Assembly (NCBI GenBank): GCA_044868695.1
Contig: JBIOWP010000064.1
Location: 1 to 18,002 of the forward strand
Length of the DNA stretch: 18,002 nt
Source: a bacterium
GTDB taxonomy: Bacteria; Sysuimicrobiota; Sysuimicrobiia; Sysuimicrobiales; Kaftiobacteriaceae
Direction of reading: 5' to 3'
In this document: positions 3,577 to 18,002 of the stretch, piece after piece
How positions within the stretch are numbered: position 1 is the first letter of the stretch
Layout of the letters: each line of letters starts with the position of its first letter
Made by a program: the position numbers and the translations under genes
Notes under the pieces: model-generated
Told to the model about the DNA's origin: nothing
What the model saw: the letters and a program-made list of their open reading frames with translations, nothing else
Database searches by the model: none

Positions 3577-3589
3577 GAGCGTTTCCCCC

Positions 3590-4693
3590 TTACCGCTGCG
3601 GCGGTTGCGGCGCCACGGCCTGATTGTCAGTGAGACCCTCTTGACCTTCGACCACGACGAGCTCACCTGGGCGGACCCCTGACGTGGCTTCCACGCGCCC
3701 GTCCTGACGGTCACCCAACGTAACGGTACGCCTGACCGCGCGGCCGGCCTGAACCACAAAGATCACCGGCCCGCCAGCGGTCGTCAGCACCGCCCGCTCC
3801 GCAATCTGCAGGACGGCGGCCCGTGTTCCGGTCACGATCGTGCCCCGCGCAAACACTCCCGTCTGGAGCATCCGCGCGTGGTTGGGAACCCGGACCTTGA
3901 CGACGAACGAGCGGTTGGCCGCAGAGGCTCCGGGACTGATGTCCGCGATCCGTCCCGTAAAGATCCGGCCCGGCAGGGAATCCACTGTGATGGCGGCGGT
4001 CAGGCCTGGCCGCAGCGCCGCACGGTGGCGCTCGGGCACGGCCAGTTCCACGTACACGTTGTCCATTTGCGCCAGGACAAACGACGGCACGACCGGCGAT
4101 ACGGCCTCACCCGGTTCCACCGACCGCTGGATGATCGTGCCGGCGAAGGGGGCGGTGACGGTCGCGTCGCGCAGCTGGATCTGCGCGCCGGCCAGCGCGG
4201 CCCGCGTCAGGTCGAGCTGCGCCAGTGCGGCCGCGAACTGCGCCTCTGCGGCATCGAGCTCCTGCCGGGAGACCGCGCCGGTCTGATAGAGTTCCCGCAT
4301 CCGCTGCACGCTGGCGTCCGCCAGGTCCAGCGCCGCGCTGGCCTGCGCCGCGCCGGCGCGGGCCTGGGACTCGGTTGCGGCCAGCTGGTCGCTCCGCAGA
4401 CGCATCAGTGGGGCGCCGAGCGGCACCCGCTGCCCTTCGCTGACAAAGACCTCCGCGACGATGCCCGACAGCGTCGACGCCACCCTGGCCTCTCTCAGGC
4501 TCGCGACTGTGCCGGTAGCCGACACGCTCGCCACGACGTCCCCGGGCTGGGCAGCGACGACCGTCACCGGGACCGGCGACGGCTGCGCCAGTTGAGTTTC
4601 CGCCGTGGGCGCGCCGCCTCTTGCCCGAACCGCGAGAAAGCCGCCGGCGAGCGCGACGATGATTGCGCCAACGATGAACACTCGGATCCGCAT
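3590..4693 (-). CDS. RND periplasmic adaptor / membrane fusion protein (367 aa)
   Basis: N-terminal hydrophobic anchor; lipoyl half-motifs SGIVAEVFVSEGQRV and VTAPFAGTI flank an Ala/Gln coiled coil; C-terminal VVVEGQEGL. ATG 4693 is preferred over 4708 because GAGGAGG (4706-4700) lies 6 nt upstream. Confidence 0.93.
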   Translation of the reverse strand: MRIRVFIVGAIIVALAGGFLAVRARGGAPTAETQLAQPSPVPVTVVAAQPGDVVASVSATGTVASLREARVASTLSGIVAEVFVSEGQRVPLGAPLMRLRSDQLAATESQARAGAAQASAALDLADASVQRMRELYQTGAVSRQELDAAEAQFAAALAQLDLTRAALAGAQIQLRDATVTAPFAGTIIQRSVEPGEAVSPVVPSFVLAQMDNVYVELAVPERHRAALRPGLTAAITVDSLPGRIFTGRIADISPGASAANRSFVVKVRVPNHARMLQTGVFARGTIVTGTRAAVLQIAERAVLTTAGGPVIFVVQAGRAVRRTVTLGDRQDGRVEATSGVRPGELVVVEGQEGLTDNQAVAPQPPQR

Positions 4694-4704
4694 GATGTGC
4701 CTCC

Positions 4705-5973
4705 TCATTGTGATCCCATTGCCAGGATCAGTTGAATACGCGCGGCGTTCTGGTTGAACCGCGCAGACGCCAGCGCCTGCTCCGCGAGGGCCAGGTTCGA
4801 TTGAGCTGTCAGCAGCTCCAGCGATGTGCCGACACCGGTCTGATAGCGTGCCGTAGCGAGGCGGACAGACTCGCGGCCTTGCTCACCGGCTTTGGTGGCC
4901 GCCGCCAGTTCGCCCGCCGCCCGCTGAAGCGCGAGCCAGGCCGTTCGCACGTCCAGCTCCACCTGCTGGCGGGTCTGCGCCTCTCTGATCTTCAATTGCG
5001 CGAGCTGCAATTGAGCCTCGCCGATCCGCGCCTGTGTGATGCCGCCGTCGAACACCGAAAACATGACGCTCAAGGTCACCGACCAGCTCCCAAAGACGGT
5101 GGCGGCCTGCCCGTCCGCGTTGGTGAAGGCATACCCCACGCCGAGGCCCAGGGTTGGCCGGCCGCCGCTCCTCGCGACCTCGACGCCCGCCTCGGCCGCT
5201 TCGGACTGGGCCCTCAGGGCCGCCAGGTCCGGCCGGCTGCGCAGCGCCCGCGCAATGGTGTCCGCAAGCGTGCCGTCGATGGGCCGTGGGGTCAGGGTGT
5301 CCGTGAGCTCCAGCGCCGTGTCCAGCGGGAGGCCGAGCACCGCGTTGAGGCCGGCCTGCGCGTTCGCGACGCCGGTCTGCGCCTGCACCAGCGTCTGCTC
5401 CGCGTTCGCGACGGCCACCTCCGCCTGAAGCACGTCGAGCCGTGACGCGACCCCGGCAGTGAACCTGATCCGGGCGACGCGAAGGCTCTCATTGGCCGAG
5501 GCCACTGCCCGCTGAGCCGCGGCGACGCTCTCGGCCGCCAGCAGCGCCTGCAGGTAGGCCTGCTCGGCCGTAAACACCACCTGCTGTTTCATCCGCTCGT
5601 AGGTCGCCTGGGCGCCCCGCAGATTCGCCTCGGCCAGCGCGGTCCGCGCCTCCAGGGCCCCGCCCGTCGACAGGGGATACGTCACAGTGAGTCCCGAGGC
5701 GTAGACGTTGGGATCGAGCGGCGGAAGCTCTTGTGTGCGGGTGTACGCGCCTGACAGGATGGCCTGGGGCTGCTTGGCACCCTGGGCCGCGGCGAGCTGC
5801 GCGCGGGCGATGGCGGCGTCGAAGGCGGCCGCCCGGAGCTGCAGGTTATCGCGGAGCACGATGTCCGTCACCTGCGCGAACGACAGGCGGGACACCGGCT
5901 GCGCTACGGCGTGCGCGGGAATCATCCCGGCGAGGACGGCGGCGAACAGTAGCGAGACAATCCCTCGGATCAT
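4705..5973 (-). CDS. TolC-family outer membrane efflux protein (422 aa)
   Basis: Start reassigned to ATG 5973 (AGGAG at 5988-5984), which gives a signal peptide MIRGIVSLLFAAVLAGMIPAHAVA-Q. Two OEP repeats: RFTAGVASRLDVLQAEV and RYQTGVGTSLELLTAQ. Directly upstream of the MFP and RND genes. Confidence 0.92.
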   Translation of the reverse strand: MIRGIVSLLFAAVLAGMIPAHAVAQPVSRLSFAQVTDIVLRDNLQLRAAAFDAAIARAQLAAAQGAKQPQAILSGAYTRTQELPPLDPNVYASGLTVTYPLSTGGALEARTALAEANLRGAQATYERMKQQVVFTAEQAYLQALLAAESVAAAQRAVASANESLRVARIRFTAGVASRLDVLQAEVAVANAEQTLVQAQTGVANAQAGLNAVLGLPLDTALELTDTLTPRPIDGTLADTIARALRSRPDLAALRAQSEAAEAGVEVARSGGRPTLGLGVGYAFTNADGQAATVFGSWSVTLSVMFSVFDGGITQARIGEAQLQLAQLKIREAQTRQQVELDVRTAWLALQRAAGELAAATKAGEQGRESVRLATARYQTGVGTSLELLTAQSNLALAEQALASARFNQNAARIQLILAMGSQ

Positions 5974-6041
5974 GCCCCTTCGTCTCCTAGAACGTCTATG
6001 TACTCGTCGAACAACGGGCGCCGAGATCGACGCAGAGATCA

Positions 6042-6050
6042 ACCCTACCA
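6042..6050 (-). promoter_or_regulatory. Candidate extended -10 element (TG-N-TAGGGT) of the efflux operon promoter
   Basis: The minus strand reads TGGTAGGGT from 6050 to 6042. This predicts a start site near 6035 and centres the CRP-type site at -41.5. Confidence 0.5.
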
Positions 6051-6068
6051 AACCCCGGGATCGATCCA

Positions 6069-6084
6069 TGTGACCGATGTCACA
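6069..6084. promoter_or_regulatory. CRP/FNR-family binding site, CRP consensus TGTGA-N6-TCACA
   Basis: TGTGA CCGATG TCACA matches all 10 core positions. It lies about 100 nt upstream of the tolC start and overlaps the TGA stop of the receiver gene. Confidence 0.7.
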
Positions 6085-6472
6085 CTTTCCCCCTGTCCGT
6101 AAGGGGAGATGGTCGCCTGGTCTGACGGATCGCCTGGAGCAGCCGGTCTCCATTCTCGTGTTTCGAGACGAACACGGTCGCGCCGGCCGCCAGTGCGCGG
6201 TCGCGTGAGAACGCATCGTCACGGAGGCTAAGAACCACGACCACGCTCTCGGGCGAGACGGAGCGCATCGCCTCGATCAATCCGGGGGTGTCGAGTTCCG
6301 CTGATTCGACGTCCACCAGGATGACATCGGGACGAAGGACTGCCGCTCTTGACAGCGCGGCAAGCATGTCATCGGCTTCGCCGACCACGGTCACATCGGG
6401 CTCTAACTTAAGCCGCATCCGCAGGCCGGACCGGATGGCGGGCTGGCTCTCGACGAGCAAAAGGCGTATCAT
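6080..6472 (-). CDS. Stand-alone receiver-domain protein, NarL-like REC without HTH (130 aa)
   Basis: ATG 6472 with AGAGG at 6484-6480. Sequence MIRLLLVES...RPDVILVD...VVVLSL...AGATVFVSK retains the phospho-Asp, Ser and Lys. The acidic pair is altered to ES. The protein ends soon after helix 5. Confidence 0.85.
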   Translation of the reverse strand: MIRLLLVESQPAIRSGLRMRLKLEPDVTVVGEADDMLAALSRAAVLRPDVILVDVESAELDTPGLIEAMRSVSPESVVVVLSLRDDAFSRDRALAAGATVFVSKHENGDRLLQAIRQTRRPSPLTDRGKV

Positions 6473-6561
6473 CGGTCTACCTCTAAGTAACGGCCATCGC
6501 AGCCTCACGAGCATCGAGCAAACGGTGGGCTGCGACGTCCAGCCTATGGGTGGTGGGGAGT

Positions 6562-6577
6562 TCCGACCAAAGGCGGA
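6562..6577. promoter_or_regulatory. Imperfect 16-bp inverted repeat TCCGACCAAAGGCGGA, candidate NarL/LiaR-type regulator box
   Basis: TCCG...CGGA dyad in the divergent intergenic region, about 50 nt upstream of the NarL-family gene. Related CCAAAG/CTTTG elements occur at 8879-8935. Confidence 0.4.
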
Positions 6578-6625
6578 CGACAGGGACCACACAATGGTGG
6601 ACACTAGCGTCCGGAGATGGCAGCC

Positions 6626-7276
6626 ATGGTGACCCGGATTTTGATTGCCGATGACCATAGCGTCGTGCGCCAGGGGCTGCGTATGTTCTTGGGCCTCGAC
6701 CCCGAACTGGAGGTCGTCGCAGAGGCCACCGACGGGTCGGAAGCCCTGCGTCTGGCCCGCGAGTTGCGGCCGGACGTCGTCCTGATGGACTTGTTGATGC
6801 CGAAGATGGATGGGATTGCCGCAACCCGGGAGGTCAGGCGGGAACTGCCAGACACCGAAGTGCTGGCGCTGACGAGCGTCCTGGAGGACGCCGCGGTGGT
6901 CAATGCCGTCCGGGCCGGCGCGATCGGCTACCTGCTGAAGAACACCGAGGCCGACGAGCTGTGCCGCGCCATCAAGGCGGCCGCGGCGGGCCAGGTCCAG
7001 CTCTCGCCGGAGGCGGCCGCCCGTCTAATGCGCGAGGTCCGGGCACCTGAGAGTCCCGAAACGCTGACCGAGCGTGAGACCGACGTTCTCAGGCTGCTCG
7101 CCGAAGGCAAGGCCAACAAGCAGATCGCCGTGACGCTCGGAATCGGCGAGAAAACGGTGAAGACGCACGTCAGCAATATCCTCGCCAAGCTGGGCGTGCA
7201 GAGCCGTACGCAGGCGGCGCTGTACGCCGCCAGAATCGGTCTCGTCCCCACGACGCAGGTAGGAGCGCGCACATGA
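6626..7276 (+). CDS. NarL/FixJ-family response regulator (REC + LuxR HTH)
   Basis: RILIADDH, PDVVLMDLLMP and GAIGYLLK receiver motifs; LTERETDVLRLLAEGKANKQIA...KTVKTHVSNILAKLGVQSRTQA LuxR HTH. GGAG at 6613-6616 favours ATG 6626 over 6617. Confidence 0.96.
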   Translation: MVTRILIADDHSVVRQGLRMFLGLDPELEVVAEATDGSEALRLARELRPDVVLMDLLMPKMDGIAATREVRRELPDTEVLALTSVLEDAAVVNAVRAGAIGYLLKNTEADELCRAIKAAAAGQVQLSPEAAARLMREVRAPESPETLTERETDVLRLLAEGKANKQIAVTLGIGEKTVKTHVSNILAKLGVQSRTQAALYAARIGLVPTTQVGART

Positions 7277-8859
7277 TGCAGCCCGCCGCCTCGCTGGGAA
7301 TGCTCTCCGCCCCGTTCGAAGCCTCGTCGGAGGCGGTCATCCTGATCAGCGAAGATGACCGGATCCTCTACGCCAACCCGGCGGCATGCCGGATCACCGG
7401 TTACCGGCTGGATGAACTGCTGGGCGCGCACGCCTACGGGTCGATGCCGCCCGACGCGCGCGAAGCGCTCCAGGCAGCGATCAAGCACCATGACGCGACG
7501 CAGCCTCCCGGGACCATCATGCGCGGCACGTCGGTGATGACCCGGGCGAACGGGGAGAACTACGAGGCGGAATTCACCGCGGCCCTGCTGATGCTCGACG
7601 GGCGCTGCCTGGTGTCCGTCATGTTCCACGACGTCTCCGAAGTGCAGGGGATGGCGCGCAAGGTTGAAGCCCTCTCCGAAATCGCCTCGCAGGTGGCATT
7701 CGCGGAATCAGCACTCGAGACGACGCTCTCGAGCCTGGCGAAGAGCGTGGTGCGGGCCACCGGGACCGTTGCCTGCGCGGTGTGTCTGGTCGACGAGAAC
7801 GGAGAGCTTCGCCAGACCGCCGACGGGCGCTTCGTGTGGGGGGCCTATGGTCTGCCCAACGATCCGGACGTGGAGGCGCAGTGGAGGGCGGCCGCTCAGC
7901 GCGGGGCGCGGCCCAATGTCGATTCCGTCCGGGAACGGCGTCCCATGGTCCACGCGGGCGCCCGCACCAAACTTCTTGATGACCCGGCCTTCGAGCCCAT
8001 GTATCCCTACCTGCGCGAGGCCCCCTGGGAAGCCGTTGCCTCGATGCCCATGCTCTATCGCAATAACGCCATCGGCGCGCTCAACGTCTTCTACCCCCGG
8101 GGAAAGAACCCGGGCCATATGGAGATCGCGTTTCTCACGGCGATCGCCGGTCAGGCCGCCGTCGCCGTGGAGAATTCCAGGCTGATTAACGACGCGAGGG
8201 AGAAGGCGATCCTCGAAGAACGGCAGCGGATCGCGCGCGAGCTGCATGATTCCGTCTCCCAGGCCCTGTACGGTATCGCCCTCGGCGCGCGCACCGCGCG
8301 CACGCTGGTGGACCGCGATCCTGCACAGGCGGCGGGGCCGCTCGACTATGTGCTTTCCCTCGCCGAGGCCGCCCTCGCTGAGATGCGGGCCCTGATCTTC
8401 GAGCTGAGGCCGGAAACGCTCGAGACCGAGGGGCTCGTCGGCGCACTCACTATGCAGATCGAAGCGGTCCGTGCCCGGCACGGGCTCGAGATCCATGCCG
8501 AGTGGTGCAGTGAACCCGACCTCACTCACGCGGTGAAGGAAGCCCTCTACCGCATCGCCCAGGAGGCGCTCACGAACATCACCAAACACGCCCGCGCCCG
8601 GCGGGTGGACGTGCGCATGGCCTGCGACTCGGATCAGATTACGCTTGAAGTCAGCGACGACGGCGTCGGGTTCGCCTCGGAAGATTCGTTCCCCGGCCAC
8701 CTCGGGCTGCGTTCGATGCGGGAGCGCGCGCGCAATGCGGGCGGCACCGTTGACGTAGAGAGCGTGCCGCTGCGGGGAACACGTATCCGGATCCGCATCC
8801 CCTACGAGAAGAGGGCCGCGCCGCGCTCCTCCCCGAGAACTTCCATCATTTCTCCCTAG
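7273..8859 (+). CDS. Soluble sensor histidine kinase, PAS-GAF-HisKA_3-HATPase_c
   Basis: PAS (RILYANPAACRITGY..DELLG); GAF (SMPMLYRNNAIGALNVF, AIAGQAAVAVEN); H-box ERQRIARELHDSVSQ; N-box IAQEALTNITKHA; DDGVGF and GLRSMRERA. ATGA overlap with the regulator. No TM segment is evident. Confidence 0.95.
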   Translation: MMQPAASLGMLSAPFEASSEAVILISEDDRILYANPAACRITGYRLDELLGAHAYGSMPPDAREALQAAIKHHDATQPPGTIMRGTSVMTRANGENYEAEFTAALLMLDGRCLVSVMFHDVSEVQGMARKVEALSEIASQVAFAESALETTLSSLAKSVVRATGTVACAVCLVDENGELRQTADGRFVWGAYGLPNDPDVEAQWRAAAQRGARPNVDSVRERRPMVHAGARTKLLDDPAFEPMYPYLREAPWEAVASMPMLYRNNAIGALNVFYPRGKNPGHMEIAFLTAIAGQAAVAVENSRLINDAREKAILEERQRIARELHDSVSQALYGIALGARTARTLVDRDPAQAAGPLDYVLSLAEAALAEMRALIFELRPETLETEGLVGALTMQIEAVRARHGLEIHAEWCSEPDLTHAVKEALYRIAQEALTNITKHARARRVDVRMACDSDQITLEVSDDGVGFASEDSFPGHLGLRSMRERARNAGGTVDVESVPLRGTRIRIRIPYEKRAAPRSSPRTSIISP

Positions 8860-8962: not shown

Positions 8963-9550
8963 ATGAGAAGGGCTGTCTCGGGGACACTAGCCGCGCTGGT
9001 GCTCTCGCTCCTGGCCGGGGCCGTGACTCATCCGGCGTACGGGCAGGCCGCGCCTTCCGGTTTTGAGGCGGAGTTCTGCGGGAAAGTCCTGGCAAACGCC
9101 TCGGCCTACCCTCCTGCTATTGTGGCGCGGTGCCAGCAACTGCTCGGCCAAGCTAGCCAGGTGCCCACTGCGAGCGGGAGTACCGGCACCACCGGCTCCG
9201 GCACCACGACTGGAAGCGGAACCACAAGCGGAACGAGCGATACGAGCGGAACCGGAACAGGCAGCGGGACCGCCGACACGAGCGGAGCTGGGACGAGCGG
9301 CGCGACCGGCGATACGAGTGGAAGCGGAACAAGCGGTGGGACCGGCGACACAAGCGGAGGCAGTTCGGTCGGCGGCACAAGCGGCGGGACAAGCGGGGGA
9401 ACCAGTGGGGGCACAAGCGGCGGAAGCAGCGGCGGCGGCAAGGGCAACGGCAAGGGCGGCGGTGGCGGGAACGGTGGCGGTAACGGCGGTGGGAACGGTG
9501 GCGGTAACGGCGGTGGAAATGGCGGCGGTAAGGGGAAAGGCGGCGGCTAG
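8963..9550 (+). CDS. Secreted Gly/Ser/Thr-rich repeat protein of unknown function (195 aa)
   Basis: AGGAGG at 8948-8953, 9 nt before the ATG. Sec signal MRRAVSGTLAALVLSLLAGAVTHPAYG-Q, a short C-x17-C segment, then a long low-complexity tail. Confidence 0.8.
   Translation: MRRAVSGTLAALVLSLLAGAVTHPAYGQAAPSGFEAEFCGKVLANASAYPPAIVARCQQLLGQASQVPTASGSTGTTGSGTTTGSGTTSGTSDTSGTGTGSGTADTSGAGTSGATGDTSGSGTSGGTGDTSGGSSVGGTSGGTSGGTSGGTSGGSSGGGKGNGKGGGGGNGGGNGGGNGGGNGGGNGGGKGKGGG
9239..9520 (+). repeat. Coding tandem repeats: 4 x DTSG at a 36-nt period, 4 x 12-nt GGTS, 5 x 12-nt GGGN
   Basis: DTSG codons start at 9239, 9275, 9311 and 9347. GGTS x4 spans 9371-9418 and GGGN x5 spans 9461-9520. The GGTS and GGGN units differ only at synonymous positions. 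Confidence 0.9.
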
Positions 9551-10890
9551 GGTGTTCGGATGGTGCGGTAGGCGGCGAGTGCCCGGTCGATCAGTTCGTC
9601 GGTGCTTCCCAAGTATGCGGAAACGTCGAAGACCTGCTGCAGCGTGTCTGGCGCGAGCGCGCCGCGGACCTGTTCGTCGGATGCCGCCAGCTCTCTAAGG
9701 TGAGTTCCCGTCTGCGCGGCACGGTCGCTGAGCCGCTGGACGATGCGATAGGCTTCGGGCCGTCCAAGTGTACGGGCCAGCGCCATCGTCAGCGCCTCGG
9801 CCAGGATCAAGCCTCCGGTTAGATCAAGATTCGTTCGCATCCGCCCCGTGTCCACCTCGAGATGTTCCAGCGCGCGGTGCACCCACTCGATCGAGGCCGC
9901 GGTGAACCGGAACAGGTCCGGCACGGCCTGCCACTCTGCCTGCCAGCCGCCCGCCGCGCGTTCGTGTTCTTGCACGCCCGCCGCCAGGACCGTGGGGACC
10001 ACCCCCAGCGCCAGGTGCGCGGATGCCCTGGCGGCCGTAATTTCCACCGGGTTGCGTTTGTGGGGCATCGTCGATGAGCGCCCCGCGGTGTCCGTCGACG
10101 TCCCCGTGACTTCTCCAACCTCGGTCTGCGTGAGCAGCGAGATGTCGGCGGCGACTTTGGCCATCGCCCCCGCGACCAGGCCCAGGGCCGAGGCGATCTC
10201 GGCCATCCGGTCGCGTTCGGTGTGCCAGGGCAGGTCCGGCGTGCCCAGGTTGAGCTCGCGGGCCAGCAGCTCCATGACGTGGACGCCGTCGGTGCCCAGC
10301 GCCGCGAGCGTTCCGGCCGCCCCGCCCAACTGCACGACCACCGCACGCGCCTGCAGTTCGCGCAGCCGCTCTACCAGACGCGTCACGTGTGCCAGCCACC
10401 GCGCCGCTTTGAGGCCGAACGTAATCGGCACCGCGTGCTGCATCAGGGTGCGGCCGGCCATCGGCGTGCGCCGGTGGCGTTCGGCCAGCGCCGCGCACGC
10501 GCCCGCGACATCGAGGAGGCGCCCGGTCAGCAGGCGCAGGCCGTCCCTGATCTGGAGCATCATCGCGGTGTCGATCGCATCCTGGCTGGTCGCACCCCAG
10601 TGCACGAACCGGCGCCCGTCGCCCTCGACGCGTTCGGTCAGCATCTTGACCAGGGGAATCGCGGGTGTCCCGGCCAGGGCGGCATCCCGATAGAGCGCGT
10701 CGACGTCGAACAGGTCCACCTTGCAGCGGGAGGCGATCGCTTCGGCCGCGGCCCCAGCGATCAGGCCTGCGCGCGCCTGCGCGCGCGCCAGCGCGGCTTC
10801 GAACTCCAGCATCCGGGCGACCAGCGACCGGCCGGAGAAGGCTGCCGACATCTCCGGCGTGCTGAACTGCGTGTCCCCGATGTCCGTCAC
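9547..10890 (-). CDS. pcaB: 3-carboxy-cis,cis-muconate cycloisomerase
   Basis: Fumarase/aspartase superfamily signature SSTMPHKRNP; HWGATSQD, GRTLMQHA and EHERAAGGWQAEW. GTG start overlaps the pcaJ stop (GTGA). pca gene context. Confidence 0.92.
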   Translation of the reverse strand: MTDIGDTQFSTPEMSAAFSGRSLVARMLEFEAALARAQARAGLIAGAAAEAIASRCKVDLFDVDALYRDAALAGTPAIPLVKMLTERVEGDGRRFVHWGATSQDAIDTAMMLQIRDGLRLLTGRLLDVAGACAALAERHRRTPMAGRTLMQHAVPITFGLKAARWLAHVTRLVERLRELQARAVVVQLGGAAGTLAALGTDGVHVMELLARELNLGTPDLPWHTERDRMAEIASALGLVAGAMAKVAADISLLTQTEVGEVTGTSTDTAGRSSTMPHKRNPVEITAARASAHLALGVVPTVLAAGVQEHERAAGGWQAEWQAVPDLFRFTAASIEWVHRALEHLEVDTGRMRTNLDLTGGLILAEALTMALARTLGRPEAYRIVQRLSDRAAQTGTHLRELAASDEQVRGALAPDTLQQVFDVSAYLGSTDELIDRALAAYRTIRTP

Positions 10891-11657
10891 GATGCGCGGC
10901 CCGCCGCCTGTCCCGACCGGTTCAGTAGATCCTGGAGCACGGTGAGTTCCTGTGCCGTCGGAGGCGGGGTTGCTGTGACCTGTTCAGCAAATCGGACCGG
11001 CCAGCCGGTGCGCTCCGCGATGGTGTCGCGTGTCACCCCCGGGTGCACCGAGGCGACCACCAGTTCTTTCGTGGAGGGCTCAGGGCGCATGAGGCACAGG
11101 TCGGTGACCACGAGGCTGGGACCGGCCGTGCGCAGGCCGAGGCGCGTCCGGTGATCCGTGCCGGTCCCGAAGCCGAACGACGTGACGAAGTCGACGGCGG
11201 GCACAAACGTCCGGCGCGTCTGAGAGGCGATCACGAACACCTGGCCGCAGCAGCTGGCGATCTCCGGCGCCCCGCCGCCGCCGGGCAGGCGGACCTTGGG
11301 TTCGGCGTACGCGCCGATCACCGTGGTATTGATGTTGCCGAACCGGTCCAGCTGCGCGGCCGCCAAGAAGCCGATCGTGACGCGGCCCCCCTGCAGCCAG
11401 TACGCAAACATCTCGGGGACCGACACGGTCACGAGCGCCGTCTCGCACAGTTCCGGGTCGCCGATCGACAGCGGCAGGACGTGCGGCTTCGCGCCGATCG
11501 TCCCGGATTCGTAGATGAGGGTGATGTCCGGGGCGTGGGTGAGCCGGGCCAGGTTGCAGGCGGCGGAGGGCATCCCGATGCCGACGAAGCAGACGTCGTC
11601 GTTCTTCAACGCCCGCGCCGCCGCCACCATCATCATCTCTTCAGCGGTGAAACTCAC
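10887..11657 (-). CDS. pcaJ: 3-oxoadipate CoA-transferase subunit B, GctB/CatJ type (256 aa)
   Basis: Real start is GTG 11657 (GTGA overlap with the subunit A stop), not 12287 as in the ORF track. Motifs CFVGIGMPS, LIYESG (catalytic Glu), AAQLDRFGNIN and RLPGGGGAPEIA. Confidence 0.88.
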   Translation of the reverse strand: MSFTAEEMMMVAAARALKNDDVCFVGIGMPSAACNLARLTHAPDITLIYESGTIGAKPHVLPLSIGDPELCETALVTVSVPEMFAYWLQGGRVTIGFLAAAQLDRFGNINTTVIGAYAEPKVRLPGGGGAPEIASCCGQVFVIASQTRRTFVPAVDFVTSFGFGTGTDHRTRLGLRTAGPSLVVTDLCLMRPEPSTKELVVASVHPGVTRDTIAERTGWPVRFAEQVTATPPPTAQELTVLQDLLNRSGQAAGRAS

Positions 11658-12478
11658 GAGGGGGTTCCTGCCCGTGTCATGACGTTGGCTTCCATCCACG
11701 CCAGGAACGTCTCCCGCTCGCGCGCGATCCCGTCCCACGCGGTATAGAATGCGTTGTCCCGTTTGTAGTAGCCGTGCGCATAAGACGGGCGCGCGCCTCC
11801 GGGCGCCGCGACAATCGCGTCGACGGTCCACGCGGGCAGAACCACGGAGTTGGGGCTGGGCGGGCGCAGGTCGGTCACGATTTCTTCCACGGTGACGACC
11901 GCGCGGGAGGCGGCCAGCACGGCCTCCTTCTGCACGCCGACGATGCCCTCGATGAGCACGTTGCCCGCGCGGTCCGCCCGCTGCGCATGCACGACCGCGA
12001 CGTCGGGCCGGATGGACGGGATCGCGGCGAGCCGCTCGCCGGTGAAGGGGTCCTCGATAGACCGAATGGCAGGATTCACCCTGGGGAGATCGGTGCCCGT
12101 GTACCCGCGCAGGATGGCCAGCGGGAGGCCCGCCGCGCCCGCCGCGTAGGCGTGCGCCATTCCGGCGTGGCTGTGTTCTTCGAGCTCGAGCGGGGCGGGC
12201 CAGTCGTGCTCCACCGCGTCGCGAAGCCGGTGCAGCGACCCGACGCCGGGATTGCCACCCCAAGAGAAGATGAGCTTGCGCGCGCACCCCATCCCGATGA
12301 GCTGGTCGTAGATGAGGTCGGGGGTCATCCGCGCCAGTGTGAGGTTGCGTCTCCGCTGCCGGATCACCTCATGGCCGGCGGCGAAGGGGATCAGGTGCGT
12401 GAACCCCTCCATGGCGACGGTATCGCCGTCCCGGACATACTCTGCGATGGCTTCGGCGAGTGACAGGAACCGTGGCAC
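11654..12478 (-). CDS. pcaI: 3-oxoadipate CoA-transferase subunit A, GctA/CatI type
   Basis: DGDTVAMEGFTHLIPFAAGHE, RMTPDLIYDQLIG, FSWGGNPGVGSLHR and HAQRADRAGN. GTG start with AGGAG at 12487-12483. Confidence 0.9.
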   Translation of the reverse strand: MPRFLSLAEAIAEYVRDGDTVAMEGFTHLIPFAAGHEVIRQRRRNLTLARMTPDLIYDQLIGMGCARKLIFSWGGNPGVGSLHRLRDAVEHDWPAPLELEEHSHAGMAHAYAAGAAGLPLAILRGYTGTDLPRVNPAIRSIEDPFTGERLAAIPSIRPDVAVVHAQRADRAGNVLIEGIVGVQKEAVLAASRAVVTVEEIVTDLRPPSPNSVVLPAWTVDAIVAAPGGARPSYAHGYYKRDNAFYTAWDGIARERETFLAWMEANVMTRAGTPS

Positions 12479-12495
12479 GCTGCTCCTACCGCCGC

Positions 12496-13071
12496 CTACA
12501 GGTTGAAGAAGACGGTCTCCGCGTCGCCCTGCAGGACGATGTCGAACCGGTACGCGACCCGGCCGTCGACCCCCTGGCGCCTGGCCACCAGCGTCGACCG
12601 GCGCGGCTCGGATACCAGGTGCAGGACGGGATCGGCAGCGTTGGCGGCGGCATCGTCGAAGTAGACACGGGTCCGCAGGTGATCCAGCAGGCCGCGTGCG
12701 AAAACGAACAGGTTGAGGTGCGGCGCCTGCATGCGCTGCCCGTCGAAGGGGACGGGGCCGGGCTTGATCGTCTCGAACCAGAAGTAGCCGCGCTCATCTG
12801 TGCCGGCGCGCCCGAAACCGACGAACGCCGGGTCGAGCGGGACGGGGCGCACATCGGCGGCGTGACGGTAGCGGCCGGCCGCGTTCGCCTGCCAGATCTC
12901 TACGAAGGCATCGGAGACGCCTGCGCGATCTCCGTCGTAGACGTAGCCTTCCACACGGATGCGCTCGCCCAGGGTCTGGGGCGTTCCCATCACGTTCATC
13001 GTCTCGTGCAGCATCCCGCCGTGGAAGAATGGACCGACGGTTTGAGGAGGGGTGAGGCCGCGTCCGGTCAT
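12496..13071 (-). CDS. pcaG: Protocatechuate 3,4-dioxygenase alpha subunit
   Basis: TPPQTVGPFFH, EIWQANAAGRY, QAPHLNLFVFARGLL..L.TRVYF and YRFDIVLQGDAETVFF. ATGA overlap with pcaH. Confidence 0.96.
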   Translation of the reverse strand: MTGRGLTPPQTVGPFFHGGMLHETMNVMGTPQTLGERIRVEGYVYDGDRAGVSDAFVEIWQANAAGRYRHAADVRPVPLDPAFVGFGRAGTDERGYFWFETIKPGPVPFDGQRMQAPHLNLFVFARGLLDHLRTRVYFDDAAANAADPVLHLVSEPRRSTLVARRQGVDGRVAYRFDIVLQGDAETVFFNL

Positions 13072-13820
13072 CGCCGCGCGCGCTGCGTCGCCTCGAACGG
13101 TTCGAACGGTGTGGCGCGCGCGCCGCGCAGGACGATGTCGAAGCGGAAGCCAAGGGCGTAGCCTTCCTGGGTCACGTCGTGCGCGTACTGCGCGACTAGG
13201 CGCGCCCGCGCCGCCTCCGTGGGCACCGAATTGAAGATGGGATCAAGCGGCTGCAGCGGGTCACCGGGGAAGTACATCTGGGTGACCAGCCGTGAGACCC
13301 ACGCCGGCCCGAACAGCGAGAAGTGGATGTGGGCCGGCCGCCAGGCGTTGGGATGGTTCTGCCAAGGATACGCGCCCGGCCGGATCGTGACAAAGCGGTA
13401 GACACCCTGGTCATTCGTGAGGCAGCGGCCGAAGCCCAGGAAGTTCGGATCAAGCGGCGCCTGATGCTGGTCCACGCGGTGCCGGTACCGGCCCGCGGCG
13501 TTGGCCTGCCAGATCTCGATGAGCGTGCCGGGCAGCGCCGCGCCGTCCTCGTCGAGGACGCGGCCGGTGACGATGATCCGCTCACCCATCGCCTCCGCGC
13601 CGGTGCCCATGTTGGTCGTCAGGTCGCTGTCCTCCACGCCGGCGTCGCCCCGCACCGTATGGTGCAGGGCGTCGCTGATCGCCGGCCCCGGGCCGGTAAT
13701 CTCCGACAGCGTCAGCGGCAGCCGGACCAGCGGCTGGTGCGGCGCGCGGCGCACCGTGCTGCGGTAGGCCTCATACAAGTACGGCGGGAAGGTCGAGGGG
13801 TCGCGTCCCGGACCGTCCAT
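13068..13820 (-). CDS. pcaH: Protocatechuate 3,4-dioxygenase beta subunit
   Basis: TLSEITGP, EIWQANAAGRYRH (Fe-ligand Tyr), PGAYPW (Fe-ligand Tyr), WRPAHIHFS (Arg and two His ligands) and RLVTQMYFPGDP. Confidence 0.97.
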   Translation of the reverse strand: MDGPGRDPSTFPPYLYEAYRSTVRRAPHQPLVRLPLTLSEITGPGPAISDALHHTVRGDAGVEDSDLTTNMGTGAEAMGERIIVTGRVLDEDGAALPGTLIEIWQANAAGRYRHRVDQHQAPLDPNFLGFGRCLTNDQGVYRFVTIRPGAYPWQNHPNAWRPAHIHFSLFGPAWVSRLVTQMYFPGDPLQPLDPIFNSVPTEAARARLVAQYAHDVTQEGYALGFRFDIVLRGARATPFEPFEATQRARR

Positions 13821-14194
13821 TACGGCTCACCCGCTTCGCCCAGATGCGTTTTGGCCATCGCGAACGCGGTATTGGCCGCCGGGATGCCGGCGTAGATGGC
13901 CACGTGGAACAACGCTTCGACGATCTCTTTCGGGTCCACGCCGAGGGTGCGGCTGGCGCGCAGGTGGAGCGCGAGCTCTTCCCGGCCCAGCGCGGCCAGG
14001 ATCGCGATGGTGATGAGGCTGCGCGTGCGCCGGTCCAGATTGGGTCTGGTCCACACCGACCCCCACGCCGTCTCGGTGATGAACCGCTGGAAGTCGGCAT
14101 CCAGCGCGGTGGTCTGCCCCTGGGCCCTGGCCACATGCTCGGCCCCCAGGATCTCTTTGCGAACCTTCATGCCTGCGTCGTACCGAGAGTCCAT
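13820..14194 (-). CDS. pcaC: 4-carboxymuconolactone decarboxylase (124 aa)
   Basis: Start at ATG 14194 (TAATG overlap with the upstream stop). GMKVRKEILG, FQRFITETAWGSVWTRP.LDRRTRSLIT and AIYAGIPAANTAF. Confidence 0.95.
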   Translation of the reverse strand: MDSRYDAGMKVRKEILGAEHVARAQGQTTALDADFQRFITETAWGSVWTRPNLDRRTRSLITIAILAALGREELALHLRASRTLGVDPKEIVEALFHVAIYAGIPAANTAFAMAKTHLGEAGEP

Positions 14195-14919
14195 TAGCCC
14201 GCCCCGCCACCGTGTGACGTCGCAGTCTTCCTGACCAGGTACGCCCAAACCTGTTCGGGCGAATAGACGCGGCGGCGTTTGGCCAGCGCCTCGTCGTCGC
14301 TCGACCAGGTGCGGAGCTCGCCAGCGGCCATCGCCAGCAGCTGTTTGCGGCAGGCCCGCTCGAGCAGGATCGCCGCGACCACGGCCGCCTCGACGGTTTC
14401 GGCGGCGGTCACGGTGCCGTGGTGCACCAGCAGCGCGGCGTTGCGCACGCCCAGCGTCTCCGCCACTGCCTGGCCCAGCTCGCGCGTGAGGATCAGGTCG
14501 CCGGTTTTGGTGAAGCGCGCGATGTCGGGTGGGACGAAGATCGTCCCTTCATGGGAGATCGGACGCAGCGGCCGTTCGAGCGAGGCGAACGCGACGGCGT
14601 GCGGCGCGTGGGTGTGGACGACGCTGTTGACGTCCACCCGCGCGCGCATGATCTCAGTGTGGATGGGAAACTCCAGATGGCGGCGGCCCGTCCCTGCCAG
14701 CACCTCGCCGTCCCACCCGACCAGCAGCACCCGGTCCGGCGTGATCTCCTCGAAGCCCCAGCCCGTGGCCTTCATCCATACTCCGCGGCCGGCGGGGTCG
14801 CGGACGGAGACATGACCCAGGAAGAAGTCCCCCAGATCCTCGGTGGCCAGCACGCGTGAGGCCGTGGCGATCTGTTCGCGGATCGCCTGGTCGTGCGCGG
14901 TCAGGGTGGCCTTGCTCAT
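14194..14919 (-). CDS. Class II aldolase/adducin-fold metalloenzyme, possible aromatic-acid decarboxylase
   Basis: GHVSVR, EFPIH...SVVHTH (Glu plus HxH metal ligands) and LLVHHG (third His). The fold call is confident; the decarboxylase role is inferred from context. Confidence 0.85.
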   Translation of the reverse strand: MSKATLTAHDQAIREQIATASRVLATEDLGDFFLGHVSVRDPAGRGVWMKATGWGFEEITPDRVLLVGWDGEVLAGTGRRHLEFPIHTEIMRARVDVNSVVHTHAPHAVAFASLERPLRPISHEGTIFVPPDIARFTKTGDLILTRELGQAVAETLGVRNAALLVHHGTVTAAETVEAAVVAAILLERACRKQLLAMAAGELRTWSSDDEALAKRRRVYSPEQVWAYLVRKTATSHGGGAG

Positions 14920-14990
14920 CGTGTGTAGGAAGATTCGTCCAGCGAGAACTCCACGCCTTCACCATGGAGAGCGATGAGGATGACGCCCAT
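14916..14990 (-). pseudogene. 24-codon mini-ORF, probable 3' remnant of a cupin paralogue
   Basis: MGVILIALHGEGVEFSLDESSYTR*. Its LHGEGVEFSLDESSYTR aligns without gaps to LRRDGVEVRMEAAFYQR of the upstream cupin (15082-15132). It starts 1 nt after the cupin stop and ends in an ATGA overlap with the aldolase gene. Confidence 0.55.
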
Positions 14991-14991
14991 C

Positions 14992-16266
14992 TCACCGGTC
15001 ACGTGATCGTCCGGCCTTCGACTTTTGTGCGCTCCGCCGGGGTCGGCGTTCGAGGGCGGGAGCGGCGGCCGCGCCGCCGGGGCGCTGATAGAAGGCGGCC
15101 TCCATCCGGACTTCCACGCCGTCCCGCCGGAGGGTGGCTTCGTACTCATGGCGGATGAACGGATCTTCATCCCAGTAGGGGATGGCGCTGCCGCCTTCGT
15201 CCAGGTGCATCGCGTTCTTGTCCAGGACCTGTTCGCCGGGACGCCCGGGCTCACGCCCCGTGCCCCGGCCGAACGGCCCGAACCAGGCCATCAGACGCAG
15301 CGGATCGCGGCTCACCCCGAAATGCTGATGGAAGTGCTGGCCGCCCATCGGGGCGGCGCTGACCATCCCGACCGGTTCGTAATCCTGTCGGAGCACGTGA
15401 TCCGCCTGGCCCGTTTCCCACGGGCGCGTCCCGAGCTCCCGCGGCCAGGCGTACGTGTAGCCCTTGCCCGCGATGCAGATCAACACGGCCGCCGATTCGT
15501 GCGCATGCGCCTTCGAGTAGCGGCCCGCCTCGTGCTGGCCGATCCAGTGGTAGAAGACGTTCTTGGCCAGGTGAGGTTCCAGGCGCCGGAATCCCGGCGA
15601 GCGGCGGTTGTCAAGCGGCAGCGGAACGCGCACGGCGTCGGGGATGATGGCCGCCGTCACCATGGCCAGACCGCGGTACGGGTCGGGTTCGAGTTCCAGC
15701 GGGCGCGGCGTGAAGTAGTCCCCACTGCCGTCGTACCGGTCGCGGAAGACATAGGGGCAGTTGAAGACGAAGTCCTGGTTGGTGAACAAGTTGAACGCGC
15801 TGGGTGCGCTGGTGCCGGCGAGCAGCAGGGCCGGTCCGGAGGCCATGCTGTTGATGAGCCGGTGGTGGGTGTTGAGCGGGATCGCGAACAGCGAGCCGGG
15901 CTGCCACTCCAGGATCTCGTGCCGGGCGCCATCCTCGTGCCAGATCTCCGCGGCGCCCCGTCCTTCCACGACGAAGATGATTTCCTCATATAAGTGGCGC
16001 TCGGGATGGAGCGCCTGGGCAGCGGGGATCTCGACGAGGTAGCATCCCCAGATCCCTTCGGTTCCGTACAGCTGAATGAACGTGCCCTTCCCGCCGACTC
16101 GCGCCCACGGGGCGAGCGGGAGGTCCTGCACCCGCTTGACGCCGATCCCGCGGTAGATCGGGATCCCCTGGGATTCCATGAAACTGTCGTAGGGAGAGGG
16201 AGGTCGCCGCCACTTGCCATAGCCCGCCCGCGCGTCTCCCCGGGGTTCCTGCCATGCGCCGGTCAT
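14992..16266 (-). CDS. Bicupin-domain protein of unknown function (424 aa)
   Basis: Start at ATG 16266 (ATGA overlap with tctB). Cupin 1: PERHLYEEIIFVVEGRG ... WQPGSLFAIPLNTHHRLIN. Cupin 2: YSKAHAHESAAVLICIAGKG ... HFHQHF. Confidence 0.85.
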   Translation of the reverse strand: MTGAWQEPRGDARAGYGKWRRPPSPYDSFMESQGIPIYRGIGVKRVQDLPLAPWARVGGKGTFIQLYGTEGIWGCYLVEIPAAQALHPERHLYEEIIFVVEGRGAAEIWHEDGARHEILEWQPGSLFAIPLNTHHRLINSMASGPALLLAGTSAPSAFNLFTNQDFVFNCPYVFRDRYDGSGDYFTPRPLELEPDPYRGLAMVTAAIIPDAVRVPLPLDNRRSPGFRRLEPHLAKNVFYHWIGQHEAGRYSKAHAHESAAVLICIAGKGYTYAWPRELGTRPWETGQADHVLRQDYEPVGMVSAAPMGGQHFHQHFGVSRDPLRLMAWFGPFGRGTGREPGRPGEQVLDKNAMHLDEGGSAIPYWDEDPFIRHEYEATLRRDGVEVRMEAAFYQRPGGAAAAPALERRPRRSAQKSKAGRSRDR

Positions 16267-16715
16267 CTGCCCACAGCCCTCCAGAGCAGCCCGGCCGGCA
16301 GCGGCAGGTGCAGCAGGTTGACGAACAAGAGGTGAAACACCAGCCCTGCCAGGAAGGCGAGGACGACTGAGATTCCCCATCCTTCTCTGCCCTGGGCCCG
16401 CAGGTACCCGAGGACGAAGAGCGGCACGGCAGCCTGAAACCCCAGGAGGATCACCGCCCCAAACAGGCCGGCGATCCAGGCCGCGATCACGGCGGTCTTC
16501 CGTGTGTCAGGTTCCTCTTCATCGGCGGCCTCCGCCGGCAGTGCGGCGCCTCTAAGACAGAGCACGCTCTCCGCCGCGGCCAGCAGCAGCAGTGGCAGCG
16601 CGACGACGCGGGGGTAGAGCGCGGCCTTGATGCCCCAGCCGCGTGTTTCCAGCAACGCCCATCCCGCGACCAGGGCGACCGCTGCGCTAAAGAGGAACCG
16701 GCCGCTAACCCGCAC
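16263..16715 (-). CDS. tctB: Tripartite tricarboxylate transporter small permease, TctB family
   Basis: About 150 aa with 4-5 hydrophobic segments, YPRVV and C-terminal LFVNLLHLPLPAGLL. GTG 16715 has GGGAG 6 nt upstream. Overlaps the tctA stop. Confidence 0.8.
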   Translation of the reverse strand: MRVSGRFLFSAAVALVAGWALLETRGWGIKAALYPRVVALPLLLLAAAESVLCLRGAALPAEAADEEEPDTRKTAVIAAWIAGLFGAVILLGFQAAVPLFVLGYLRAQGREGWGISVVLAFLAGLVFHLLFVNLLHLPLPAGLLWRAVGR

Positions 16716-18002
16716 CGACAACTCCCGGCACGTCCGCCTTGGCCTCGGCGCGTCGCTGTTGAATAAGGGAAGAGACGATGACCGTGACGGTTAGGATGAA
16801 GAGGAGCACCACCACGGGGCGTGTCAACCAGGTGGCCCCATAGCGCGCGACCGAGATCCACAGATACCGTTCGGCGATTTCCCCGAGGACCAGACCCAGG
16901 ACCAGCGGCGCGCGCGGCCACCCGAATCGCACCATGAGATACCCGAGAGCGCCGAAGAACAGCATGACGATCACATCACCCAGGCTGTTGTTGTTGGTAT
17001 ACGAGCCAAGGAAGGTGAGTACGATTAGGAAGGGGATCAGCAGCGATCCGCGCACGGCGGTGATGCGCGCCAGCTGGTTCAGGAACACCAGGCTCGCGGT
17101 GACCGTGATGATATTGGCCAGGACGATCGTCCACACCATCGAGAGCGTCACGTTCAGGTGCCTGGTCAGCATGTCCGGTCCGGGCGTGAGGCCCACCAGC
17201 AGGAACCCTCCAAGTAGGATGGCCATCGCGGAACTGCCCGGAACGCCGAACGCGACCGTGGGAATCAGCGCTCCGCCTTCCTTCGAGTTGTTGGCGGCGC
17301 CCGGACCCAGGACGCCCCGGACGTCGCCGCGCCCGAAGCCCGTGCGGTCCTGCGGCGTTTTCCCGCTCTGTGCCGCGTGCGCGTAGGCGATCCACTGCGC
17401 CACACCGCCGCCCAGCCCCGGAATGATCCCGATGTACGTGCCGATAATGCTGCAGCGGATGGTGAGCCAGAAATGGCGGAAGGTGTCCTTGATCCCTTCC
17501 AGCACGCCGCCCAGCCGTCCGGTCGGCGCGGCTCCCGCGATCGCCGTCCCGCGGACCGCGAGGTCGATGATTTCGGGAATCGCAAAGAACCCGACCAGGG
17601 CAGGCACGAGGTCCAGCCCCTGCCAGAGGTAGAGCGTTCCAAATGTGAACCGGAGGTGCCCGGACTGCGGATCCGACCCCACCGCGGCGAAGAGCAGCCC
17701 CAGACACCCTCCCAGGAACCCGCGGATCATTGCCCGGGACCCGCGGGCACTGAGCGAGGCGATAAATGCGATGCCCAGGATGGACAGCATGAACAATTCA
17801 GGCGACCCGAACGCGAGCACCAGCGGTCGGACGACCGGGATGGCGAGCGCGAGCGCGGCAGCACCGACCAGCGCGCCGACCAGCGAGCTCATCAGCGCCG
17901 CCCCGAGCGCCCGTCCGGCCTCGCCCTTCTTGGCCATCGCATGTCCGTCGAGAATCGTGGCGGCGGTCGTGCCTTCGCCTGGAATACCGAAGAGGATTGA
18001 CG
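16705..18002 (-). CDS. tctA: Tripartite tricarboxylate transporter large permease, TctA family (5' end outside the window)
   Basis: The frame stays open beyond the track's ATG: SILFGIPGEGTTAATILDGHAMAKKGEAGRAL. Also GIIPGLGG, AANNSKEGGALIPTVAFGVPGS and GLTPGP. Confidence 0.93.
   Translation of the reverse strand, partial: SILFGIPGEGTTAATILDGHAMAKKGEAGRALGAALMSSLVGALVGAAALALAIPVVRPLVLAFGSPELFMLSILGIAFIASLSARGSRAMIRGFLGGCLGLLFAAVGSDPQSGHLRFTFGTLYLWQGLDLVPALVGFFAIPEIIDLAVRGTAIAGAAPTGRLGGVLEGIKDTFRHFWLTIRCSIIGTYIGIIPGLGGGVAQWIAYAHAAQSGKTPQDRTGFGRGDVRGVLGPGAANNSKEGGALIPTVAFGVPGSSAMAILLGGFLLVGLTPGPDMLTRHLNVTLSMVWTIVLANIITVTASLVFLNQLARITAVRGSLLIPFLIVLTFLGSYTNNNSLGDVIVMLFFGALGYLMVRFGWPRAPLVLGLVLGEIAERYLWISVARYGATWLTRPVVVLLFILTVTVIVSSLIQQRRAEAKADVPGVVGAG

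Follow-up and report, generated by a model that had tools for sequence, protein, structure and literature searches.

Which compounds does a protocatechuate operon degrade when its first genes encode a tripartite tricarboxylate transporter (TTT), a bicupin and a class II aldolase-fold protein? The question is raised by an 18,002-nucleotide stretch of DNA from a bacterium of the phylum Sysuimicrobiota, hereafter the window, which comprises the entire contig C64 (JBIOWP010000064.1) of a 2.59 Mb genome that is 95% complete and has a GC content of 68%. In the labels used below, G stands for a genome (G000 being the source genome), C for a contig of the source genome, L for a locus stretch, f for a family and g for a genus. 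Gene identities and junctions, conservation in relatives, the exchange of downstream modules and the scar of a deleted transporter gene were read directly from these DNAs. The arrangement that they outline, which we read as a likely phthalate-type funnel with one uncharacterised enzyme module, is real and conserved. We put at about even the chance that the operon covers the steps from import to ring cleavage within a larger island degrading natural phthalate-type acids, likely hydroxylated benzene di- or tricarboxylic acids; every substrate named below is proposed from sequence.

In the proposed route, the TTT system would import an aromatic polyacid, and the bicupin, helped by an EutA-like ATPase and probably using nickel or cobalt, would catalyse an early step whose product is a phthalate-type acid. 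This acid would be hydroxylated by Rieske oxygenases of an island represented by contig C108, and the aldolase-fold enzyme would form protocatechuate by removing a carboxyl group beside a ring hydroxyl. PcaHG, PcaB, PcaC and a CoA-transferase would then carry protocatechuate through ortho ring cleavage into the beta-ketoadipate route. The original prediction on this DNA had assumed that two metalloenzymes suffice to make protocatechuate. Bicupin and aldolase alone probably do not make it, since the conserved unit adds a second bicupin, an EutA-like ATPase and Rieske oxygenases in an adjacent island, and in most cases a Ni/Co transporter as well.

The main reason for placing the bicupin upstream of phthalate-type acids is that the modules downstream of it are exchanged. 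In families f1 and f5 the aldolase and pca genes lie behind the cupin-EutA pair, and in genus g18 a phthalate 3,4-dioxygenase set is found. All four stretches fetched from f3 carry GntR, two family III CoA-transferases, UbiD and NicO behind the pair. The f3 CoA-transferases and UbiD are 43-52% and 66-68% identical, respectively, to those of a plasmid cluster of Aromatoleum EbN1, which is arranged UbiX-UbiD-CoA-transferase-TRAP, lacks cupin and EutA, and is presumably the pht cluster of this strain. Its order matches that of the phthalate-induced cluster of Azoarcus PA01, as far as excerpts of the preprint describe it (bioRxiv 10.1101/2022.07.29.502009). The phthaloyl-CoA route of Aromatoleum and Azoarcus (PhtSaSb, PhtDa) thus replaces aldolase-pca in f3, whereas it is absent from the window. 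In Alphaproteobacteria the pair is accompanied by a Rieske protein closest to 9INA (E 1.6e-150; 10 of 80 loci from GTDB), a structure named as isophthalate dioxygenase in excerpts of PMC12445078, and in Phyllobacterium the cupin-EutA cluster includes NiCoT and NikR. OphC-like genes occur in 8 of the 80 loci. The substituted aromatic acid postulated by the original prediction therefore looks phthalate-type.

Two observations on these loci deserve separate mention. On plasmid 2 of Aromatoleum EbN1 (L161:6729-8243) a second UbiD lies between two 99.4% identical phthaloyl-CoA-decarboxylase-like genes; it is 53-69% identical to the UbiDs beside cupin-EutA clusters and may act on the substrate sought. 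The g18 genomes (L144, L146, L151, L158), which lack pcaH, have a lower pathway of the meta-cleavage type next to the Rieske island described below.

Co-occurrence of cupin and aldolase with pca genes, which the original prediction proposed as a check, holds in part. The cupin-aldolase-pca order recurs in at least 10 related genomes (10 of the 20 related stretches fetched). However, pcaH is missing from 11 of 24 cupin-positive relatives and the cupin from 10 of 23 pcaH-positive ones, so that the bicupin is not tied to pca; its steady partner is the EutA-like ATPase. Among 61 related genomes, full-length EutA occurs in 21, all of which also have the cupin; three cupin-positive genomes lack EutA, and in two of them a contig break falls inside cupinB. 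A single 864-aa ORF in one locus (L087:10001-12600) fuses bicupin A to the EutA-like ATPase. The predicted bicupin-EutA complex scores 0.63, the best control reaching 0.01, a mark that 51 of 78 solved complexes but just 2 of 108 mismatched pairs attained; at least 53% of contacts agree between runs and the partner pLDDT is at least 74. The predicted interface comprises cupin residues of about 82-85, 103-107, 116-122 and 138-143 and ATPase residues of about 402-447. The prediction supports binding of the bicupin to the ATPase and does not tell cupin A from cupin B. Neighbourhoods were counted in the best 80 of 609 GTDB loci, which include related and hence non-independent loci and are without a background rate. 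EutA was present in 34 of these, within 300 bases in 27, tctC in 36, and a Ni/Co transporter in 8, all with EutA. Three unrelated types of Ni/Co transporter accompany the pair, once together with NikR.

The EutA-like ATPase, encoded on contig C39 of the source genome, is a full-length match to Pfam EutA (417.9 bits). It shares this match with EutA, the reactivase of B12-dependent ethanolamine ammonia-lyase, but differs in being paired or fused with a bicupin, in missing the NCBIfam EutA cut-offs (scanned with the G035 orthologue) and in the lack of EutB, for which the 95% complete source genome gave no match although the E. coli control was positive. Ethanolamine use was therefore rejected. 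The odds seem to us evenly balanced that the ATPase loads or exchanges the metal of the bicupin. A sequence search of the PDB found no solved EutA relative, and a literature search, with most subscription journals outside its scope, found nothing on the pair.

The bicupin itself (14992..16266, minus strand; 424 aa, Pfam Cupin_2), which belongs to subfamily A and is the predicted partner of the ATPase on C39, represents a large and unnamed family. One search gave 1889 matches among 8000 candidates scored, another 556 representatives at E 1e-30; the family occurs in 40 of the 94 genomes of the phylum, and homologues 71-77% identical are found in Candidatus Sysuimicrobiota. NCBIfam has no family for it at E 0.001, sequence search of the PDB gave nothing useful, and in the Atlas only unnamed cupin clusters match. 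The N-terminal barrel carries E89, H91, E94 and H135 and the C-terminal barrel H254, H256, H313 and H315; K252, H254, H256 and H313 are invariant in the family alignment and the residue following H313 is variable. The resulting C-barrel pattern, KAHxH...HxH without Glu, is that of gentisate 1,2-dioxygenase. The structure model (pLDDT 83) matches best the folds of gentisate 1,2-dioxygenase (Z 20.2, rmsd 3.7 A, 262 residues aligned) and salicylate 1,2-dioxygenase (Z 20.1), while the profile match to 3BU7 reaches only E 0.00027. The bicupin fold and the three-His motif are thus shared with the gentisate, salicylate and 1-hydroxy-2-naphthoate 1,2-dioxygenases. Unlike these, our protein places the His triad in the C-barrel and an E-x-H...E...H site in the N-barrel, falls outside the gentisate 1,2-dioxygenase sequence family (TIGR02272) and all others of NCBIfam, and comes with a partner ATPase and Ni/Co transporters. 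Our first choice for its reaction, a tentative one, would be that the C-terminal three-His site uses O2 to cleave a C-C bond in the manner of gentisate or 1-hydroxy-2-naphthoate dioxygenase, so that a fused ring is opened and an ortho-dicarboxylic acid remains. In the phenanthrene route, PhnG feeds phthalate according to excerpts of PMC3318190. A quercetinase route was rejected, there being no esterase in the operon and the swapped partners being phthalate-type. Three small cupins related to the bicupin halves were also seen (L147:8412-9573 and 13160-13639; G000:C108); two of them, adjacent to each other, precede a Rieske alpha/beta pair and look like a split version of the bicupin family without EutA.

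The class II aldolase-fold protein (14194..14919, minus strand; Pfam Aldolase_II) retains E83, H102, H104 and H167, which align with PhtC; we assume for this Glu and the three Zn-binding His the roles they have in FucA. The original prediction stated that canonical pca operons contain no class II aldolase. As the 3,4-dihydroxyphthalate decarboxylase PhtC itself belongs to the class II aldolase-fold family, the fold is not foreign to this chemistry. The protein is not a member of the PhtC family, scoring 93.5 bits on NF053537 against a cut-off of 200, where the canonical PhtC of a Microbacterium plasmid, used as control, scores 384.8. Sugar-phosphate aldolases were rejected on account of the aromatic gene context and of scores far below the cut-offs (fucA, 48.2 versus 400.25; araD, 40 versus 389.1). 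Orthologues, defined by at least 70% identity, were found in 21 of the 61 related genomes, 14 times with pcaH, 5 times with a phthalate 3,4-dioxygenase and twice at contig ends. The five dioxygenase genomes constitute genus g18, lack pcaH and encode an alpha subunit orthologous to PDB 9JP5 (E 1.6e-188); in four of them the aldolase directly follows dioxygenase alpha, beta, ferredoxin and dihydrodiol dehydrogenase, an association not seen in the source genome. No canonical PhtC exceeded the cut-off in any of the 61 genomes, and the next aldolase of the same g18 operon lacks two of the Zn histidines.

Among plasmid-borne homologues, the closest are those of a Rieske cluster in Streptomyces (53% identity) and a pht cluster in Microbacterium (53%); next come cupin-EutA clusters of Sinorhizobium (44%) and, in Ralstonia, a cluster for a 4,5-dioxygenase (39%). 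Since long branches meet in the aldolase tree, of which only a quick version was computed, we used it solely for the well-supported clade in which the aldolase-fold protein groups with its homologues from Microbacterium and Streptomyces. The protein is likely an ortho-hydroxy-aryl decarboxylase with a PhtC-like role, and we lean slightly towards conversion of 3,4-dihydroxyphthalate or 4,5-dihydroxyisophthalate to protocatechuate as its predicted reaction. With the actinobacterial PhtAaAbAcAd-PhtB-PhtC route the locus would share an aldolase-fold enzyme with Glu and three His acting before protocatechuate cleavage and, in g18, aldolase orthologues behind a true PhtAa/PhtB set. It differs in that the protein is outside the PhtC family, no PhtAa orthologue is present in the genome, import is by a TTT system, and the bicupin and EutA-like genes have no Pht counterpart. 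No class II aldolase is named in the excerpts found of the literature on ophA2 phthalate genes. The Microbacterium sediminis plasmid (L164) combines in its pht cluster two dioxygenase alpha copies (88% identical), a canonical PhtC, an OphC-like gene and the aldolase homologue, that is, decarboxylases in excess of what phthalate needs.

Import is assigned to tctA, the large membrane subunit, truncated at its 5' end by the contig end (16705..18002, minus strand; Pfam TctA, 354.6 bits), and tctB, the small one (16263..16715, minus strand; Pfam TctB, 48.5 bits, cut-off 29.1). The third component, tctC, is not in the window; a TctC-like gene is present on C39 and, upstream, where the original prediction proposed to look, in relatives, completing the tripartite system. 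Contig C39 overlaps the end of tctA at 90.6% identity, 25 of the 28 differences falling at third codon positions. It encodes tctC and, in the divergent direction, both a second bicupin (37% identical) and the full-length EutA-like ATPase. Relatives have the contiguous layout eutA-cupinB <> tctC-tctA-tctB-cupinA-(Ni transporter)-aldolase-pcaCHG-catIJ-pcaB. Soil sequencing runs display strain variation in tctA, and two soil contigs that continue past the window end contain a 32-base opposite-strand match to the cupin, which is weak and fits the C39 layout. The arrangement is reminiscent of the terephthalate uptake system TphC/TpiAB of Comamonas in its TctA/TctB/TctC architecture beside aromatic diacid catabolism, but the TctC encoded upstream bears no more than a remote resemblance to proteins that bind terephthalate (E 1e-9 to 4e-7) and lacks close similarity to TphC/TBP.

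In six genomes, contigs link this layout to an island matching C108 and C161. Islands of this type encode two Rieske alpha/beta pairs and an OphC-like decarboxylase, together with three small cupins that belong to the bicupin superfamily, a Zn dehydrogenase, a TPP enzyme and ABC transporters. The OphC-like protein matches 4,5-dihydroxyphthalate decarboxylase (PDB 9JP7, E 1.2e-65); a literature search of the scope given above found no paper on structures 9JP5 and 9JP7.

A link to nickel is left in the window as a scar (14916..15010, minus strand) where a gene for a NicO/UreH-like Ni/Co transporter has been deleted. The original prediction listed eleven seamlessly joined ORFs; ten are genes, and the eleventh (14990-14916; 24 codons, GC3 0.67) is this relic. 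Its first residues match the N-terminus of the NicO-family Ni/Co transporter of L178 and its 3' half the transporter-aldolase spacer of relatives, on which grounds a peptide gene was rejected. A membrane protein of 229-242 aa occupies this position between cupin and aldolase in 12 related loci (L042, L043, L045, L051, L172, L173, L175-L180), and the cupin directly adjoins the aldolase in 8 other cupin-to-aldolase loci. Two of three transporter copies scanned pass the Pfam NicO cut-off (an intact relative scores 32.2 bits, cut-off 27.7). Near-identical contigs bridge the scar in all four soil runs, from two studies and with one run possibly of the source sample, so that an assembly error can be discarded.

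Several observations weigh against the route proposed above. The linkage of C39 and C108 to the window is by synteny in relatives, the C39 overlap being no more than 90.6% identical. The Rieske pairs of the source genome are distant from known enzymes (terephthalate dioxygenase, E 3.5e-48; 7YLS/9O71, E 1.7e-54), and no close phthalate 3,4-dioxygenase was found in this genome (best E 1.5e-49). The aldolase-fold protein is 33% identical to canonical PhtC. Its 53% homologue resides in one Microbacterium plasmid alongside canonical PhtC, and its 39% homologue in a Ralstonia cluster whose 4,5-dioxygenase route needs no PhtC, so that its substrate may differ. Of the 80 GTDB loci, counted without a background rate, 59 show no phthalate-type gene and 72 no Ni transporter, and the OphC-like matches have identities of 30-54%. 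A genome search found no NicO elsewhere in the source genome which, given the loss of the transporter from the operon, weakens the nickel step for this strain. The hydratase-aldolase and aldehyde dehydrogenase of the naphthoate route are both missing from the operon, the bicupin is just 11-13% identical to the structurally matched dioxygenases, and oxalate decarboxylase is nearly as good a fold match (Z 18.6).

In an alternative for the bicupin that we regard as unlikely, the bicupins are metal-dependent decarboxylases of trimellitate, hemimellitate and pyromellitate that strip off one carboxyl and leave whichever phthalate isomer the lineage can oxidise, the remainder of the route being unchanged. 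Foldseek ranks oxalate decarboxylase/MncA first, the importer is of the tricarboxylate type, and the downstream partners span ortho, iso and tere isomers, which fused-ring fission would not explain; the exchange of modules is thus compatible with this alternative too. On C108, moreover, the terephthalate-dioxygenase-like pair is co-oriented with the OphC-like decarboxylase, although degradation of terephthalate or isophthalate does not require a decarboxylase of its own (PMC13040137 section 2.3). On the other hand, the extra decarboxylases could be accounted for without a cupin step if a Rieske enzyme attacked a triacid. Oxalate decarboxylase bicupins have a His-His-Glu-His Mn site in both barrels; here the C-barrel lacks the conserved Glu and in the N-barrel Glu replaces the first His. 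Decarboxylation of an unactivated aryl acid is not known to us from any cupin, and among the papers listed by a literature search of the scope given above none concerned a trimellitate pathway.

A second alternative, of similarly low probability, concerns the aldolase-fold protein, which might instead decarboxylate 4-hydroxyisophthalate or 3-hydroxyphthalate to a hydroxybenzoate that a separate hydroxylase converts to protocatechuate, or else act on a ring-cleavage product. Exact equivalence to PhtC is questioned by the joint presence of a homologue and canonical PhtC on one Microbacterium plasmid and by G060, in which aldolase-pcaCHG is flanked by a divergent 4-hydroxybenzoate 3-monooxygenase and there is no cupin. 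A gene for an HpaB-like monooxygenase comes after the aldolase gene in g18 and after pcaB in g6, with a 75% identical orthologue on C15 of the source genome, and a class II aldolase, DhbB of Pseudomonas reinekei, decarboxylates a ring-cleavage product according to excerpts of PMC6362003. Dihydroxyphthalate decarboxylation is nonetheless favoured by g18, where the protein is the only candidate with an intact Zn site directly after a dihydrodiol dehydrogenase and canonical PhtC is absent; broad specificity could cover both substrate types.

In a third alternative, which seems to us very improbable, bicupin and EutA would serve a substrate of their own outside the pca route, such as pyridine carboxylates or a non-aromatic acid, and would merely have been gathered into an aromatic-scavenging island of this phylum under a shared promoter. 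In its favour, pcaH occurs in 1 of the 80 GTDB loci, 59 lack a phthalate-type gene (21 have one, by thresholds of our own), most loci outside the phylum have no phthalate-type partner, many have only tctC genes or unrelated neighbours, and pca without cupin is common in the relatives counted above. Against it, within the phylum the module precedes three different phthalate-type routes in three families, and overlapping stop and start codons couple cupin, aldolase and pca.

The pca genes and three aerobic phthalate routes are already known (PMC13040137), and that review mentions neither a cupin nor an aldolase. How phthalate degradation arose before plastics is an open question, for which the review raises natural phthalate esters as one idea. 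On a bolder reading, which we consider doubtful, the bicupin would make up, with its EutA-like ATPase, an undescribed nickel enzyme that is serviced by ATP, is common among soil bacteria not yet cultured, and sets phthalate-type acids free from natural aromatics of a polycyclic or polycarboxylic kind, such as quinone pigments or humic or charred carbon. This enzyme would be the natural supply to which the pathways for phthalate, isophthalate and phthaloyl-CoA owe their evolution, and the aldolase clade would be a second, independent PhtC. On the route proposed above, EutA-family ATPases would gain a B12-free client, and a non-canonical hydroxyphthalate decarboxylase, useful for annotation and biocatalysis, would be added. 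Since the module precedes several phthalate routes that are unrelated to one another, in soil phyla without cultured members, it narrows the proteins worth assaying to a few; carriers in culture exist in Phyllobacterium (such as Phyllobacterium zundukense) and Sinorhizobium.

The pca portion of the operon is ordinary, already-known chemistry. All on the minus strand, pcaC (4-carboxymuconolactone decarboxylase, 13820..14194; TIGR02425, 164.4 bits, cut-off 155.7), pcaH and pcaG (protocatechuate 3,4-dioxygenase beta, 13068..13820, and alpha, 12496..13071; TIGR02422, 317.2 versus 296.4, and TIGR02423, 216.1 versus 126.25) and pcaB (3-carboxy-cis,cis-muconate cycloisomerase, 9547..10890; TIGR02426, 371.8 versus 355.75) pass the curated cut-offs and belong to the protocatechuate branch. 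The CoA-transferase subunits A (11654..12478) and B (10887..11657), which match Pfam CoA_trans and which we take to be CatI-like and CatJ-like, fall far short of canonical PcaI/PcaJ (TIGR02429, 30.2 bits, cut-off 128.5; TIGR02428, 31.6 bits, cut-off 243.55); they likely form a 3-oxoadipate CoA-transferase of a non-canonical type. Compared with the beta-ketoadipate operon, with which it shares PcaH/G/C/B and a CoA-transferase pair, the operon thus differs in its CoA-transferases, in its translationally coupled upstream genes and in containing no pcaD, pcaF or regulator. The best matches in the 95% complete genome reach 134 bits for PcaD (cut-off 255.85) and 522.9 bits, at a contig end, for PcaF (cut-off 597), so that both, if present, are encoded outside the operon.

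Recomputed from the sequence, all ten junctions of the original prediction proved exact on the minus strand. tctA and tctB (start GTG 16715) overlap by 11 nt; tctB and bicupin are joined by ATGA (16266-16263), the bicupin is separated by 1 nt (14991) from the 24-codon ORF, and this joins the aldolase by ATGA (14919-14916). Aldolase/pcaC and pcaC/pcaH share TAATG with 1-nt overlaps at 14194 and 13820, pcaH/pcaG ATGA (13071-13068), and a 17-nt gap precedes CoA-transferase A (start 12478), after which GTGA links A to B (11657) and B to pcaB (10890). The ten genes have GC3 values of 0.81-0.90 and no internal stops. A separate promoter before pcaC, which would have spoken against the original prediction, was not found; sigma-70-like promoters were at chance level (1 found, 0.5 expected) in a scan that is a weak test at 68% GC. 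Near-identical DNA is present in soil metagenomes from two studies.

Some minor features accompany the pca genes. In six stretches (L031, L035-L038, L041) and in G060 (L152) a cyclase-family gene (PF04199) follows pcaB at the position expected of pcaD, making it a candidate substitute enol-lactone hydrolase. G057 (L031:10119-11054) has an additional gene, of the formamidase/acetamidase family, separating the aldolase gene from pcaC. A second aldolase-pcaC-pcaH-pcaG copy in the source genome (G000:C50:1-2178) is about 78-80% identical to the window and about 90% identical to g6-type relatives; being nearer the latter, it was rejected as a meaningful functional second copy and is likely a bin contaminant or transfer. 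The remainder of the window (328-8859) encodes an RND efflux set (AcrB, MFP, outer-membrane-factor-like), a NarL-type regulator, a lone receiver and a PAS-GAF-HisKA_3 kinase, a block not conserved beside the cluster in relatives. Between this block and pcaB lies a 195-aa Gly/Thr/Ser-rich ORF (8963-9550, plus strand) with a signal-peptide-like start and no Pfam match, whose stop overlaps that of pcaB by 4 nt; its position is occupied in relatives by a cyclase or HpaB-like gene, and one soil run contains an allele 12 bases shorter.

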